NCBI GenBank assembly: GCA_947626065.1
Contig: CANQQT010000001.1
Location: forward strand, 30,183 to 94,182
Origin: an uncultured Clostridia bacterium
Lineage (GTDB): Bacteria > Bacillota > Clostridia > Oscillospirales > CAG-272
Reading direction: 5' to 3'
Length of the DNA: 64,000 nt
Positions 7,746 through 12,728 of the stretch are shown here, piece by piece. Made by a program: the position numbers and the translations under genes. The notes beneath the pieces are model-generated. The model was not told where the DNA came from. It did no database searches and saw only the letters and a program-made list of their open reading frames with translations. The number at the start of each line of letters is the position of its first letter. Within the stretch, counting starts at the first letter, position 1.

Positions 7746-8750
7746 ATGAAAGAAATCACACTCGGAAAAAGAAAAAAAGGAATGGCCGTTCTGCTCCTCA
7801 CCATTCTCCTCTATCTCGCCGCCGTCGCGGCTGTCATCGTTGGGGGAATCCTTGAAAGCTACATCCTCCTCGGCGTCGGATGCTTCTGGCTTCTCGTCGG
7901 ATGGCTTCCCTTCCTCGGCCTGAAGGTTTTAAAGCCTCAGGAGGCGCTGGTGCTCACCCTCTTCGGAAAATACCTCGGCACCCTTCGCGGGGACGGCTTC
8001 TTCTACGTCAATCCCTTCTGCACCGCCGTCAATCCCGCCGCGAAAACCCGTCTCAACCAGTCGGGAGACGTCGACAGCAAGAGCGGCGGAGAGTCGATTC
8101 TTCTCACCCCGACGGCGGGAACCGTCCCGACGGTCGATAAAAGAATTTCCCTCAAGGTCATGACGTTGAACAACAACCGGCAGAAGATCAACGACTGCCT
8201 CGGAAATCCCGTGGAAATCGGAATCGCCGTCACGTGGAGGGTCGTCGATACCGCCAAGGCGGTTTTCAACGTCGACAACTACAAGGAATTCCTCTCCCTG
8301 CAGTGCGACTGCGCCCTGCGCAACATCGTCCGCCTCTATCCCTATGACGTCGCGCCCAACGTCGATACGACCGGGGACGGCATCGCCGACGAGGGGAGCC
8401 TTCGCGGATCAAGCGAAATCGTGGCGGCCCGGATCCGGGACGAAATCCAACAGAAGGTTTCGGAGGCAGGGCTGGAAATCATCGAGGCAAGGATTACCTA
8501 TCTCGCCTACGCGACGGAAATCGCCGCCGTCATGCTCCAGCGCCAGCAGGCTTCCGCCATCATCGACGCGAGAAAGATGATTGTCGACGGCGCCGTCGGC
8601 ATGGTGGAAATGGCGCTTGAGAGACTGAGTCAGAACAACACCGTCACCCTTGACGAGGAGCGCAAGGCGGCGATGGTCTCCAACCTTCTCGTCGTCCTCT
8701 GCGGCAATCGCGACGCGCAGCCGGTCGTCAATTCCGGAAGCCTCTACTGA
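7746..8750 (+). CDS. SPFH/band-7 (stomatin-prohibitin family) membrane protein
   Basis: Two N-terminal TM helices followed by an SPFH-like core and a coiled-coil-like C-terminus (AVMLQRQQASAIIDARK). Confidence 0.8.
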   Translation: MKEITLGKRKKGMAVLLLTILLYLAAVAAVIVGGILESYILLGVGCFWLLVGWLPFLGLKVLKPQEALVLTLFGKYLGTLRGDGFFYVNPFCTAVNPAAKTRLNQSGDVDSKSGGESILLTPTAGTVPTVDKRISLKVMTLNNNRQKINDCLGNPVEIGIAVTWRVVDTAKAVFNVDNYKEFLSLQCDCALRNIVRLYPYDVAPNVDTTGDGIADEGSLRGSSEIVAARIRDEIQQKVSEAGLEIIEARITYLAYATEIAAVMLQRQQASAIIDARKMIVDGAVGMVEMALERLSQNNTVTLDEERKAAMVSNLLVVLCGNRDAQPVVNSGSLY

Positions 8751-8944
8751 TGATGGCAGAAAGCAAAAAGCAGGTCCCTTTGCGCATTTCCGCCACCCTC
8801 TACAGCGACCTCGCCCAATGGGCGGAGCAGGATTTCCGATCCCTGAACGGGCAAATCGAATATCTCCTCACCGAATGCGTAAAGCAGCACAAAAAAACCG
8901 GGAAATACCTGCCGGATCCCCAGCCCTCCGACGGGTCGCTCTGA
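8750..8944 (+). CDS. Small Arc/ribbon-helix-helix-like DNA-binding protein, translationally coupled to the SPFH gene
   Basis: TGATG stop/start overlap. The N-terminal segment KKQVPLRISATLYSDLAQWAEQDFRSLNGQIEYLL fits the RHH pattern. Confidence 0.6.
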   Translation: MMAESKKQVPLRISATLYSDLAQWAEQDFRSLNGQIEYLLTECVKQHKKTGKYLPDPQPSDGSL

Positions 8945-9082
8945 CAGGCCCCGCCGTCAGTCACCCTTCTTTCCCTTTTGCATAGACTGTATATCAGAAA
9001 GGCGGATGGCACCTCCCCGAAAAGGAGCGCCGACGGCTTCCGCCACCGCCTTTCTGAGTAAAGAGAAAGGACGGATATCACG

Positions 9083-9190
9083 ATGGGCTGCCTCTGCAAC
9101 ATTTTTGATGACTGCAACGTCTGGGTCATCATCCTGATTCTTGTGATTCTTTATTGCTACTGCAACGGCGAAAACTGCTGCCACGGTTGA
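9083..9190 (+). CDS. Unannotated 35-aa Cys-rich single-TM peptide (MGCLCNIFDDCNVWVIILILVILYCYCNGENCCHG)
   Basis: ATG at 9083 with AAAGGA about 9 nt upstream. A hydrophobic core is flanked by Cys clusters. A strong terminator follows immediately at 9205-9235. It falls below the ORF-track size cutoff. Confidence 0.55.
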   Translation: MGCLCNIFDDCNVWVIILILVILYCYCNGENCCHG

Positions 9191-9204
9191 CCCGTTTGCT
9201 CCCC

Positions 9205-9235
9205 GGCCCGCCGCTTCTGCGGCGGGCCCTTTTGG
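9205..9235 (+). terminator. Rho-independent terminator
   Basis: GGCCCGCCGC-ttct-GCGGCGGGCC followed by CTTTTGG. Confidence 0.8.
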
Positions 9236-9330
9236 CGTTCAGGAAGCCCCCCGGGGCCGTATGCGTCGTCTGCCGCTATCTAACCCTTTGCGCGGCCTTT
9301 TCGGCGTTCCCTGACGGCCCCTCACGCGCC

Positions 9331-9428
9331 GGTTCTGCGTGACCCGTACCTGTCACCGTTGCCCGATCCTGCGCGGTTCTGCGCGACCCGTACCTGTCAC
9401 CGTTGCCCGATCCTGTGCGGTTCTGCGC
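9331..9428. repeat. 44-bp tandem repeat, 2.2 copies
   Basis: Copies at 9331-9374 and 9375-9418 differ at 2 positions; a partial third copy lies at 9419-9428. Confidence 0.9.
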
Positions 9429-9528
9429 TGTTTTCAGAGTCCCGAACCGCTTCGCATCGTTCCGCTGCACCGGCGACCTCCCCGCCGGTCAAACACGCCC
9501 TATTCATAAAAAATTAAAGAATTATCTA

Positions 9529-9564
9529 TTGATTTTTCCTTGCTATTGATATATAATATCAATA
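9529..9564 (+). promoter_or_regulatory. Promoter (TTGATT-17-TATAAT) overlapped by a 9-3-9 palindrome (candidate Fur/PerR-family operator)
   Basis: TTGATT at 9529-9534 and TATAAT at 9552-9557. Perfect inverted repeat TATTGATAT-ata-ATATCAATA at 9544-9564. Confidence 0.65.
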
Positions 9565-9595
9565 ATGAATATCCTATGCGAAAAGAGCGCCGGAA

Positions 9596-10003
9596 ATGAA
9601 AAGACAAACCCTTCAGAAAAGCATTATTTCAAATGCTTTGAAGCAGCTCGGCAATCACCCGACGCCCGCCATGGTCTACGAAAAGATTCACCCGGAGTAT
9701 CCCTCCATCAGCCCCGCCACCGTCTTCCGGGTTCTGGCCGGGGAATGCGAGGAGGGCCGCGCCCAGCGCGTCTACGTTCCCGGCGGAACGGTCCGGTACG
9801 AATACGGAACGCGCAGGCATTCGCATATCCGCTGTCGGATCTGCGGAAAAATCGCCGACGTCGAGACGCCTCCCTCCCTGAATCCCGTCGACTCCGTTCT
9901 TGACGCCGAGGGATTTTCGGTGGAATCCTGTTTCCTTGAATTTATCGGCCTCTGCCCGGACTGCCGAAAGGCTTCCGACGCTACCGATAAAAATAAATTT
10001 TAA
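9596..10003 (+). CDS. Fur-family transcriptional regulator (PerR-like by context)
   Basis: Winged-helix N-terminus (ATVFRVL), an HSHIRCxxCG motif and a C-terminal CPDC. It is cotranscribed with rubrerythrin. Confidence 0.85.
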   Translation: MKRQTLQKSIISNALKQLGNHPTPAMVYEKIHPEYPSISPATVFRVLAGECEEGRAQRVYVPGGTVRYEYGTRRHSHIRCRICGKIADVETPPSLNPVDSVLDAEGFSVESCFLEFIGLCPDCRKASDATDKNKF

Positions 10004-10021
10004 CTTTTGAGAGGTATTGTT

Positions 10022-10567
10022 ATGAAATTTGTATGCACCGTTTGCGGCTACGTCTACGAAGGCGACGCGGCCCCCGAAAAATGCCCGGTCTGCAAGGCTC
10101 CCGCCTCTAAATTCAACGCGATGCCGGAAGGCCGTACATGGGCGGCGGAGCACGTCGTCGGCGTCGCTCAGGGCGCTCCTGAGGACATCCTCGCCGATCT
10201 TCGCGCCAATTTTGCCGGAGAGTGCACGGAAGTCGGAATGTACCTCGCCATGGCGAGAGTCGCCCACCGCGAAGGCTATCCCGAAATCGGTATGTACTGG
10301 GAAAAGGCCGCTTACGAGGAGGCGGAGCACGCCGCCAAGTTCGCGGAGCTCCTCGGAGAAGTCGTCACCGATTCCACCAAGAAGAACCTTGAGATGAGAG
10401 TCGAGGCGGAAAACGGCGCCACCGCCGGAAAGTTCGACCTCGCCAAGCGTGCAAAGGCCCTGAATCTTGACGCCATTCACGACACCGTTCACGAAATGGC
10501 AAGAGACGAAGCCCGCCACGGCAAGGCCTTCGAGGGCCTTCTTGCCAGATACTTTGACAAGAAATAA
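10022..10567 (+). CDS. rbr: Reverse rubrerythrin (N-terminal rubredoxin-like CxxC...CxxC followed by a ferritin-like diiron domain)
   Basis: [14 protein letters not shown]...CPVCKAP is followed by ExxH diiron motifs (EEAEH, DEARH). GAGAGG lies 7 nt upstream of ATG 10022. Confidence 0.9.
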
Positions 10568-10645: not shown

Positions 10646-11293
10646 CGGAGTTCCCGATTTCACCGATTTCCCGGGCATCCCAAAAGACCGGTTTTTCTCG
10701 CCCGTTTCTGAAAGCCCTTTACGGGGGCTTTCTTCCCCGTCCCCAAAGGCCAAACTTTTCCCGTTTTTTTCTTCGGTTTTTCAAAAAACCGGTTTTGCGG
10801 CGCACGCCCTGTCGACCGAAAGCCTGTTTTCTTCGACTTTTTCAAAAAGTCGATTTTTCAGCGCTTTCCCATCCGTCCGAAAGCCTGTTTTCTCCGATTT
10901 TTCAGCGCTTTCCTCTCCGTCCGAAAAGCCCGGATTTTCTCACTCTTTTCTCAAACGTCCTGCGGCCCGTCTTCCCGGCCCTTCCCTGCCGTTTCCAAAA
11001 GTGTCCTTTCATGGCCTTTCTTACCCATCGCCGAAAGCTCTCTTTTCGCTTCCTTCTCTCTCCTCTCCTGAAAAAGAAAACTTTTCATCAAATTTTTTCT
11101 TCTCCTTTCGACAGCGGTGCCCACAGCCTTCCCTTTTCCGCTCTTTCGGAAGCTTTTTCGGAAAGAAATCCGAAAAAACCCCGACAAAATTCTGTCGCCG
11201 AATTCTTTTCTCTGTGATATAGTTTAAACACCCCGCAAAATTCGGCGGGAAATAAGAGGAAAACCAAAAGCCGACGAAAGGACGAAAAAAATC

Positions 11294-12178
11294 ATGACCT
11301 GTACAAGCCGGATAAAAAAAGCTTTGGGAGCAAAAGGAAGAAAGGAATCCTACTACGGAAAAATTCAGTATCTGCCGACCGGGAGCATTCTCCCCAACCC
11401 CTCCCAACCGAGAAAAAATTTCAACGACGAAGCCCTCTTCCGTTTAGCGGAAAGCGTTCTGCGCTACGGCGTCCTCCAGCCGCTTTCCGTTCGATTCGCC
11501 AAGGGCCAGCCTCCGGATCCCTCCACGCCCCTCGCTTCCTGCCGTTTTGAGCTGATTGCCGGGGAACGCCGCCTCCGTGCCGCGAAAATCGCCGGGCTTC
11601 ACGAGGTACCCTGCATTCTCATCAACGCCGACGACAAAAAATCCGCCGAGCTCGCCTTGATTGAAAATCTCCAGCGGGAAGATTTGAATCTCTTCGAGCA
11701 AGCCGGAGCCATCAGCTCTCTTATCGACGTTTACGGCATGACGCAGGAGCAGGCGGCGCATCTGCTGGGAATGACGCAGGCGGCGGTCTCAAACAAGCTC
11801 CGCCTCCTGAAGCTCACCTCCTCCGAGCGGCGGCTCATCGTCGAGAACAGTCTCAGCGAGCGGCACGCGCGCGCCCTCTTGAAGCTCTCCGATCCGGATT
11901 TGCGGAGCGAAATTCTGCAAACCGTCGTCAAAAAGGGCCTGACCGTCGCGGGAACCGAGGCCCTGATCGACCGCTATCTTTCCAAAGACATCCCCGATTC
12001 CGCTGGGGAGGGATCGCGAAAAATGATTCTCAAGGATCTCCGGATCGTATACAATACGCTGGATCGGGCGCTGGACGTCATCGAGCAGGCAGGGATCGCC
12101 GTTGCCAAAGAGAAGCACGAAAGCGAGGACGCCGTCGAGCTGATTATTACGATCAGCAAGCGCCGGGAAGGCGCCTGA
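11294..12178 (+). CDS. ParB/Noc-family protein in the Noc position (between rsmG and soj)
   Basis: ParB N-terminal box (LIAGERRLRAAK), an HTH region (GMTQEQAAHLLGMTQAAVSNKLRLLKL) and a Noc-like C-terminus (KDLRIVYNTLDRAL). Confidence 0.8.
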   Translation: MTCTSRIKKALGAKGRKESYYGKIQYLPTGSILPNPSQPRKNFNDEALFRLAESVLRYGVLQPLSVRFAKGQPPDPSTPLASCRFELIAGERRLRAAKIAGLHEVPCILINADDKKSAELALIENLQREDLNLFEQAGAISSLIDVYGMTQEQAAHLLGMTQAAVSNKLRLLKLTSSERRLIVENSLSERHARALLKLSDPDLRSEILQTVVKKGLTVAGTEALIDRYLSKDIPDSAGEGSRKMILKDLRIVYNTLDRALDVIEQAGIAVAKEKHESEDAVELIITISKRREGA

Positions 12179-12250
12179 CGTCAAGCCTGACGTCAAGCCT
12201 AACGTCAAGCCTGATATCAAGCCACCCACCGTCAAGCCTAACGCCAAAAG
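12179..12250. repeat. 12-bp tandem repeat (CGTCAAGCCTRA), about 5 copies, starting at the stop codon of the ParB paralog
   Basis: Copies at 12179-12190, 12191-12202, 12203-12214, a degenerate copy from 12215, and 12230-12241. Confidence 0.85.
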
Positions 12251-12253
12251 AAA

Positions 12254-12728
12254 TGTTTCACGTGAAACTTTTTGCGCCATGTTGAGCAGGCTCCCCAACG
12301 CTGTGCCGAACCGGATTGTTTCACGTGAAACAGTTTTGTTCTCACCCTTGCGGGCTTCCTTTTGCGCACCCGTGTTGCATGAATTGTTTCACGCGAAACA
12401 TTTCCAGTGATTTTGCCCCGCGTGAGCATTTATCTGCCTGGGGCCTTTGTTCCACGCGAAGAATTCTTCCGCGCATTTTGTAGGACGGGCTTCTCTGATT
12501 CGGCGTTGCGCGGGTTGTTTCACGCGAAACATTTTTGTCCTCGCCCTTGTAGAGCTCCCTTTTGCGCACCCTTGTCGCATGAATTGTTTCACGTGAAACA
12601 TTTCCCCATGACTTTGCCCCACGCGAGCGCTTGCCTATCCGTCTCTTTTGTTTCGCGTGAAACATTTTCCTGTTATTTGCTCTCGTACACGCCGGTTGTC
12701 CCATGTCGCCTTTGTTTCACGTGAAACA
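12254..12728. repeat. parS: Array of eight parS (ParB-binding centromere) sites with 63-69 bp spacing
   Basis: Four sites match TGTTTCACGTGAAACA/T exactly, three carry one mismatch and one is degenerate. Per-site coordinates are given in the findings. Confidence 0.85.

Follow-up and report, generated by a model that had tools for sequence, protein, structure and literature searches.

The peptide gene and its distribution

The stretch of DNA analysed here, called the window throughout, comprises 64,000 nucleotides (nt) of contig CANQQT010000001.1 from an uncultured Clostridia bacterium (Oscillospirales, CAG-272). In its segment 8960-9235, a promoter, a strongly paired leader, a Shine-Dalgarno (SD) site, an open reading frame (ORF) for a 35-amino-acid (35-aa) cysteine-rich peptide and an intrinsic terminator follow one another on the forward strand (Table 1). 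We consider it probable that this segment is a self-contained, monocistronic late-sporulation gene, whose message begins with a stabilising 5' stem-loop and whose product is a Cys-rich single-pass peptide, probably of the spore envelope. A preliminary description of the window had noticed the ORF, the leader and the terminator and offered three readings, namely a type I toxin-like or sporulation-type membrane peptide with leader-gated translation, a small cis-regulatory RNA, and the precursor of a modified peptide; it overlooked the promoter.

The ORF runs, as described there, from ATG at 9083 to TGA at 9188-9190 and translates to MGCLCNIFDDCNVWVIILILVILYCYCNGENCCHG. The peptide contains seven cysteines, at positions 3, 5, 11, 25, 27, 32 and 33, rather than the eight first counted. 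Among 86 distinct sequences, C3, L4, C5 and W14 are invariant, and N6, F8, D9 and C27 reach 90% conservation or more. AlphaFold2, given the family alignment, predicts a single helix over residues 13-27 with a mean pLDDT of 71. In all of the first 30 loci compared, the peptide is 28-55 aa long and a GGAGG-type ribosome site lies upstream. The differences among six close relatives fall mainly on the third codon position (76:31:184 for positions 1:2:3), which agrees with the coding nature proposed earlier. The gene is real, under purifying selection, and stands alone.

Conservation of the frame, on which the preliminary description let the gene stand or fall, was borne out. Of the 301 genomes in a family sample, 248 gave the peptide in six-frame searches at E <= 1, including 182 of the 215 of high quality; 87 of the 97 genera are represented, and other families of the order carry it as well. 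A profile built from the 86 sequences recovers part of the apparent absences within the family and is positive in 52 of 201 genomes across the order, some complete genomes among them; matches occur for instance in the families f1 (9/10), f18 (8/10) and f20 (6/10). A pattern scan over one genome per prokaryotic species yielded 139 confirmed relatives, and the 80 loci that were kept are labelled as gut or rumen Clostridia, Oscillospiraceae or Eubacteriales metagenome-assembled genomes (MAGs), save two otherwise-labelled bins. The peptide has one copy in its own genome by six-frame search, and its gene is the only one there to pass a genome-wide filter for small Cys-rich hydrophobic ORFs, which considered the first ATG per open frame only; the promoter motif and an SD site are also present.

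When 1.84 billion representative proteins were searched with the profile, 123 matches were obtained at E <= 0.001, with lengths of 30-101 aa and one exception, a 1300-aa repetitive protein that aligned at a hydrophobic segment only; on this basis the peptide is never part of a larger protein. The exact 35-aa sequence is present in a public protein collection (sources NCBI, ENA and Logan) without a functional name. Gene callers therefore do find the gene, which makes its earlier label of "unannotated" doubtful. Scanned against Pfam and NCBIfam, the peptide and 28 relatives gave nothing above the cut-offs, with sub-threshold hits to PEF-CTERM, DltX and Adaptin on the hydrophobic stretch, and the ESM Atlas gave unnamed clusters only (scores 0.82-0.83), which are leads only. 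Full-text literature searches retrieved no paper with the peptide motifs CLCNLFD, CLCNIFD or NCLCNLF, and the literature on small cysteine-rich sigK sporulation proteins gave nothing on a CLCNxFDD...W peptide family. The peptide represents a new, uncurated micropeptide family of gut Clostridia.

A sigma-K-type promoter

The promoter motif ahead of the peptide gene is conserved across loci. An alignment of 30 upstream regions on a CATA chosen by eye reads CATA(G/T/C)A(A)T, with T at +7 in 29 of 30, and then (T)ATCAG(A); exactly 16 nt 5' of CATA stands GT(C/A)AC, in which the A is kept in 22 and the C in 24 of the 30 regions. The regular expression AC-N15-17-CATAnnnT was fixed beforehand and scanned over positions -150 to -20 of new, independent loci. 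Of 77 distinct upstream regions it matched 66; the opposite strand gave one match in 77, and the expectation from shuffles was 2.5. In the window, the promoter reads GTCAC-N16-CATAGACTGT (8960-8990).

The same genome encodes SigK (NF004471, 275.8 bits; cut-off 252), SigE (362.4 bits; cut-off 339) and SpoIVA (689 bits), and 93 nt upstream of its dpaA it carries GGTCAC-N16-CATAGACTGT, a promoter of the same form as that of the peptide gene. The dpaA-like gene in question (G000:C2, 47599, minus strand) scores 214.7 bits, under the equivalog cut-off. The available text of Saujet et al. (2013; PMC3789822) places dpaA in the sigma-K regulon, assigns AC as the -35 element of sigma-K, and gives a C. 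difficile sigma-K promoter with CATATAAT at -10 and AC at -35. A CATAnnnT(A)-type -10 element and, at -35 with a distance of ~16-17 nt, an AC rather than the ATA of sigma-E occur in the window, and SigK is encoded by a genome predicted to sporulate. The conserved motif, the presence of SigK, SigE and SpoIVA, and the dpaA promoter of the same form are the grounds on which we read the promoter as sigma-K-type and the peptide gene, by its motif, as one probably expressed late in the mother cell.

It has to be asked whether the promoter is used by SigE, in the early mother cell, or by SigE and SigK both, rather than by SigK alone. The -10 elements of sigma-E and sigma-K promoters are very similar, as far as the text of PMC3789822 goes, and many of the loci read CATACAAT or CATAGAAT at -10, which would suit SigE. 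The conserved -35 element, however, is the AC of GT(C/A)AC, 16 nt upstream, which the same source assigns to sigma-K; at this position no ATA, the form a sigma-E promoter would have, is conserved, and the same promoter form stands ahead of dpaA. Use by SigE, alone or together with SigK, is very unlikely in our judgement. No CATAnnnT was found in the 600 nt upstream of the profile match to the genome's spoIVA, and there is therefore no internal sigma-E comparator.

The distribution across genomes is compatible with a sporulation role at low test power. SpoIVA was found in 265 of the 301 family genomes, and in the order sample in 184 of 201 genomes, including 50 of the 52 peptide-positive ones.

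The leader and its predicted 5'-terminal hairpin

As the preliminary description stated, TCAGAAAGGCGG (8994-9005) and CCGCCTTTCTGA (9046-9057) are perfect complements and enclose a TGGC/GCCA extension and two small hairpins. In a fold of 300 nt (8941-9240) this three-way junction is the minimum free energy (MFE) structure, with z = -3.58 and none of 200 shuffles as good. The signal is weaker for the 106-nt leader by itself (z = -1.97; 6 of 200 shuffles as good), where the MFE of -34.8 kcal/mol belongs to another, near-isoenergetic fold and the three-way junction, including the extension and both inner hairpins, is the centroid at -33.9 kcal/mol.

The columns +14 to +16 after CATA are purines in 28-30 of the 30 aligned loci. 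These conserved purines after TATC would mark the likely transcription start, which in the window falls at ~8995-8998, at the foot of the leader stem. With this predicted start, a 5' hairpin is conserved across the family. Of the 30 loci, 19 have an MFE hairpin of <= -5 kcal/mol that starts 3 nt or less from the predicted 5' end, a count reached in 0 of 100,000 simulations, where shuffles gave an expectation of 5.25; 57 further distinct loci include 45 with such a hairpin, 12.0 being expected. Owing to the kinship of the loci and the assumed start, these figures are not true probabilities. A histogram of hairpin offsets from CATA over 80 loci, with 24 peaks at +14 to +16 and 34 at +4 to +9, was judged uninformative; the peaks at +4 to +9 reflect helices that the method prolonged into promoter DNA that is not transcribed.

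Between loci, the stems vary freely in sequence, length and loops, many of the loops being GNRA-like, and five of the first 30 loci lack a hairpin, their leaders being short. This fits a generic 5'-terminal stem-loop and not an aptamer. In the relatives L005 and L077 the outer AGAAAGG/CCUUUC stem is kept with differing inner hairpins, and the three-way junction of the window appears to be a genus-level enlargement of the family's 5' hairpin. RNAalifold returned no consensus pairs for five genus leaders, since these could not be aligned by MAFFT.

The leader had also been read as a possible riboswitch or thermosensor, and the Rfam comparison suggested at that time gave five weak matches within 8000-10500 (E 0.5-5.9), two of which merely fit the terminator hairpin. 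The best scores were 11-23 bits against gathering scores of 41-100, no family reached even half of its gathering score, and none of the matches fell within 8985-9060; the genus leaders could not be aligned. By analogy, the leader is most likely a protective 5'-terminal hairpin of the mRNA and not a riboswitch. In Gram-positive bacteria, such 5' stem-loops, when accompanied by a strong ribosome site, stabilise mRNAs. The aprE 5' stem-loop is reportedly treated by Hambraeus et al. in 2002.

Access to the ribosome-binding site

AAAGGA (9066-9071) is present as noted at first; its spacing is larger than the ~9 nt given then, as it ends 11 nt before the ATG, while the extended GGACGGA ends 7 nt before it. 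In the genus of the window, the 5' arm of the leader stem, AGAAAGGCGG, resembles the SD sequence AGAAAGGACGG, and hence the 3' arm, CCGCCUUUCU, can pair with either the 5' arm or the SD. The choice between the two depends on the first nucleotide of the transcript: the long stem has a probability of ~1.0, 0.5 and 0 for starts at 8994, 8996 and 8998, respectively, and the alternative fold, which masks the SD, is dominant only with a start at or after ~8998.

These properties raise the possibility of a translational switch confined to the genus, in which the 3' arm would act as an anti-SD and the 5' arm as a competing SD mimic, with temperature, a factor or start-site choice setting access to the ribosome site. 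The two conformers are near-isoenergetic (-34.8 and -33.9 kcal/mol), the long-stem probability shifts with the start as given above, the related locus L077 has the same anti-SD pairing as its MFE, and an SD-like 5' arm with a CCUUUC-like 3' arm recurs in L005, L077 and L003. Nevertheless, the anti-SD fold is not the one chosen by L002, L003 and L005, the energy differences of ~1 kcal/mol fall inside the prediction error, and the alignment of the five genus leaders yielded no consensus structure in which covariation could be sought. Across the family, moreover, the SD region is mostly open, with a median unpaired probability of 0.51 and values < 0.3 in only 5 of 57 loci. We regard such a switch as unlikely. 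The leader-gated translation suggested in the preliminary description is not a family trait; it may yet apply in the genus of the window, where the alternative anti-SD fold is predicted.

We also note two further pairings of this region. In the 300-nt fold, the SD region (9060-9075) is paired with the pyrimidine tract CCTTCTTTCCCTTTT (8964-8979), which precedes the predicted start and sits between the -35 and -10 elements, so that transcripts reading through from the upstream SPFH-RHH operon would have a masked ribosome site. The codons of the invariant C-L-C (codons 3-5, 9089-9097) read TGCCTCTGC in close relatives, and in part of the predicted folds their CCUC is paired to the GG of the SD, possibly by chance.

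Layout of the locus and gene neighbourhood

The features of the locus are collected in Table 1.

Table 1. Features in and around the peptide gene, in window coordinates.
Feature	Position	Strand	Basis or remark
Weak-terminator-like hairpin, CTGACaGGC-ccc-GCCGTCAG	8941..8960	+	MFE pairing; no call by the terminator scan
-35 element GTCAC, sigma-K-type	8960..8964	+	AC at 8963-8964; 16 nt before CATA
-10 element CATAGACTG, CATAnnnT type	8981..8989	+	Motif kept across the 30-locus and 77-region sets
Predicted transcription start	8995..8998	+	Inferred; purines after the conserved TATC
5'-terminal stem-loop, predicted three-way junction	8994..9057	+	Outer stem 8994-9005/9046-9057; folding; hairpins of other sequence at the same place in relatives
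Alternative pairing of the 3' arm CCGCCUUUCU (9046-9055) with the SD region AGAGAAAGGaCGG (9063-9075)	9046..9075	+	MFE
Shine-Dalgarno region AAAGGACGGA	9066..9075	+	GGAGG-like site here in 30/30 relatives
Coding sequence of the 35-aa peptide	9083..9190	+	N-terminal motif CLCNxFDDC, helix 13-27, tail CYCNGENCCHG
Intrinsic terminator	9205..9235	+	10-bp G+C stem, 4-nt loop, then CTTTTGG

The 3' boundary of the gene is formed by the stem GGCCCGCCGC-ttct-GCGGCGGGCC (9205-9228), G+C-rich and of 10 bp, which begins 14 nt past the stop codon as first described. Stem and U-run are those of an intrinsic terminator, with CUUUUGG holding 4 U only, for which reason a simple, strict scanner did not call it. 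Of 109 loci, 107 have an 80-nt stretch 3' of the stop that folds at <= -12 kcal/mol, in keeping with a terminator behind each gene copy. At the 5' boundary, the terminator-like hairpin formerly extended to 8980 stands at 8941-8960 only; 8960-8989 holds the promoter elements of the peptide gene. This hairpin overlaps the stop codon of the upstream RHH gene and its 3' arm enters the -35 element; it is possibly a weak terminator for the SPFH-RHH operon.

The neighbours of the peptide gene in the window (SPFH, RHH, Fur-family and rubrerythrin genes) have no match in any of 109 other loci. The neighbours that recur elsewhere encode topoisomerase, LytB-S1, RbfA, DHH, LepA and DUF4830 (18 loci) or are ORFs without a Pfam match, and are thus housekeeping or of unknown function; radical-SAM, YcaO, lanthipeptide and transporter genes are absent from them. 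In 30 of 110 loci, the window not among them, a 237-aa ORF without a Pfam match (e.g., L083:1694-2404, plus strand) lies directly upstream of the peptide gene.

These neighbourhoods bear on the third of the earlier readings, a ribosomally made precursor of a modified peptide. The small size and the Cys content of the peptide would be in keeping with a precursor, as the strongly paired leader would be with a ligand-sensing RNA. Against the former stand the four unmatched window neighbours, the lack of maturation enzymes or transporters among the recurrent ones, and a conserved peptide core that is a membrane helix; against the latter, the Rfam scores and a hairpin that has no conserved sequence core and is absent from five of 30 loci. 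That either of the two holds is extremely unlikely.

The same applies in lesser degree to the idea that the peptide damages membranes as a holin-like or type I-toxin-like effector, for example in mother-cell lysis and spore release. It is a short, hydrophobic, single-pass peptide, and the late mother-cell timing implied by its promoter would suit lysis. Antisense sigma-70-like promoters, a promoter-motif proxy for antisense RNA, are however not enriched (24 of 101 loci; 22.4 expected), and the single copy and broad inheritance of the gene, in 87 of 97 genera of the family, are unlike the patchy occurrence of toxin-antitoxin loci. The type I toxins of B. subtilis are sigma-A driven according to the available text of a review (PMC10730256). 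In addition, conservation is strongest in the Cys/Asp head and not in a charged tail, and no lysin gene is found among the conserved neighbours. An effector of this kind is decidedly unlikely, and of the first of the earlier readings it is the sporulation-type small membrane peptide, with its family-wide sigma-K-type promoter and predicted single helix, that is supported, and the type I toxin that is not.

Several elements were observed further downstream. The 400-nt gap between the peptide terminator and the Fur-family gene contains a 44-nt tandem repeat (2.2 copies, 96% matches, 9330-9428). A sigma-70-like promoter, TTGATT-17-TATAAT (10/12 matches), stands ahead of the Fur-family (PerR-like) and rubrerythrin genes (9529-10567), and a promoter-like site on the opposite strand (9582-9553) is directed toward the peptide gene. 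Between the rubrerythrin gene and parB, a non-coding gap of ~700 nt contains a 61-nt tandem repeat (2.3 copies, 10767-10904). The 12-nt repeat GCCTGACGTCAA (4.2 copies, 12173-12223) is located at the 3' end of parB, and directly 3' of the parB-like ORF (11294-12178) are seven palindromic parS-like sites (12254-12728) with a spacing of ~65-130 nt, none being expected by chance; they differ by 0-1 mismatch from TGTTTCACGTGAAACA, which we take to be the parS consensus.

Comparison with known systems

Several known proteins share part of these features. Like YjcZ (TIGR01732, tiny_TM_bacill), the peptide is tiny and sporulation-linked in its predicted expression and has one hydrophobic helix with short Cys/Gly-rich ends. 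It is unlike YjcZ in its invariant N-terminal CLCNxFDD...W, which is specific to its own family. Membership of TIGR01732 was considered and rejected: the cut-off of 21.35 bits was not reached, the peptide and 28 relatives gave no match to the hidden Markov model at E <= 10, and the genome gave none at E <= 1. CotY/CotZ/ExsY and CdeC/CdeM are Cys-rich, late mother-cell proteins of the spore envelope, whose Cys content suggests cross-linking; in contrast to the peptide they are much larger, soluble and self-assembling, and they are not known to share a membrane helix or a sequence relation with it.

With a stable hairpin placed by prediction at its 5' end and a strong ribosome-binding site after it, the mRNA would resemble the aprE leader and the ermC-type stabilisers. 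It differs from them in that the hairpin is expanded in the genus to a three-way junction, the 3' arm of which can also pair with the SD. The likeness of the promoter to sigma-K promoters of B. subtilis and C. difficile, with AC at -35 and CATAnnnT at -10, is one of motif alone.

SpoVM and CmpA, which guide coat assembly in B. subtilis, are likewise very small. In the available text of a review (PMC10730256), the mother cell produces both, and the forespore surface is where they act, SpoVM being a 26-aa amphipathic helix under sigma-E. The peptide differs from SpoVM by its fully hydrophobic helix, its cysteines and its sigma-K-type promoter, and no NCBIfam or Pfam model matched it.

Proposed role and implications

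In the explanation that we favour, RNA polymerase with SigK would start transcription at ~8995-8998 from GTCAC-N16-CATAGACTG, and the mRNA would open directly with a stable stem-loop, which in this genus takes the form of a three-way junction. The stem-loop most likely blocks decay that depends on the 5' end, in the manner of the aprE-type 5' stem-loops of Bacillus, and the short message so protected could persist in the dying mother cell; the SD site and the intrinsic terminator would complete the unit. The predicted product has an acidic head, M-x-CLCNxFDD, whose CxC is invariant, a W14 placed at the edge of the membrane, a helix of 15 residues, and a tail rich in Cys, Gly and Asn. Its charge pattern suggests an N-terminus directed outward and a tail in the mother-cell cytoplasm. 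The peptide may reside in the outer forespore membrane or the mother-cell membrane, where its cysteines would bind metal or cross-link it to coat layers.

A number of observations weigh against this explanation. The minimal promoter motif is short and its -10 element is common to sigma-E; 11 of the 77 upstream regions lack the strict motif, most of these having CATAnnAT with a GTAGCA-like -35 element, and the shuffle tests overstate significance for loci that are related. The transcription start is an assumption, which places it 14-15 nt past the C of CATA. The window itself has no hairpin by the strict definition, its MFE being the alternative, SD-pairing fold, and the five hairpin-free leaders among the first 30 loci have already been mentioned. 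The phyletic link to sporulation is weak: by hand cross-tabulation, the peptide occurs in 230 of 265 spoIVA-positive and in 18 of 36 spoIVA-negative family genomes, several of the latter 18 matches being weak or from incomplete MAGs, and the order sample has no power for this question because nearly all of its genomes have spoIVA. The function proposed for the peptide is one assigned by analogy.

We hold a bolder form of the proposal to be doubtful as a whole, in which the CLCNxFDD...W peptide would be a previously unrecognised, lineage-specific structural anchor in the spore envelope of uncultured gut Oscillospirales-type Clostridia, its paired Cys clusters exposed on either side of the outer forespore membrane, and in which a 5' hairpin would tune the mRNA to the dying mother cell and double in the genus as a translational switch between SD mimic and anti-SD. 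If this were true, metal or disulfides held by the Cys clusters would rivet the coat to the membrane on a spore that meets oxygen.

With the promoter located, a strongly paired leader before a tiny ORF becomes readable as a stabiliser of the 5' end. The ~100 orthologous sigma-K-type promoters, so assigned by motif, form a clean set for predicting the late sporulation regulon in these uncultured gut Clostridia, whose sigma-K regulons are unmapped. Among the spore-forming Clostridia of the gut, most have not been cultured, and next to nothing is known of their spore surface, which governs host-to-host transmission, survival of oxygen and germination. The peptide, carried by > 80% of the genomes sampled from one family and found also in several neighbouring ones, is a concrete candidate for a component of the spore that can be tested in any cultivable carrier.

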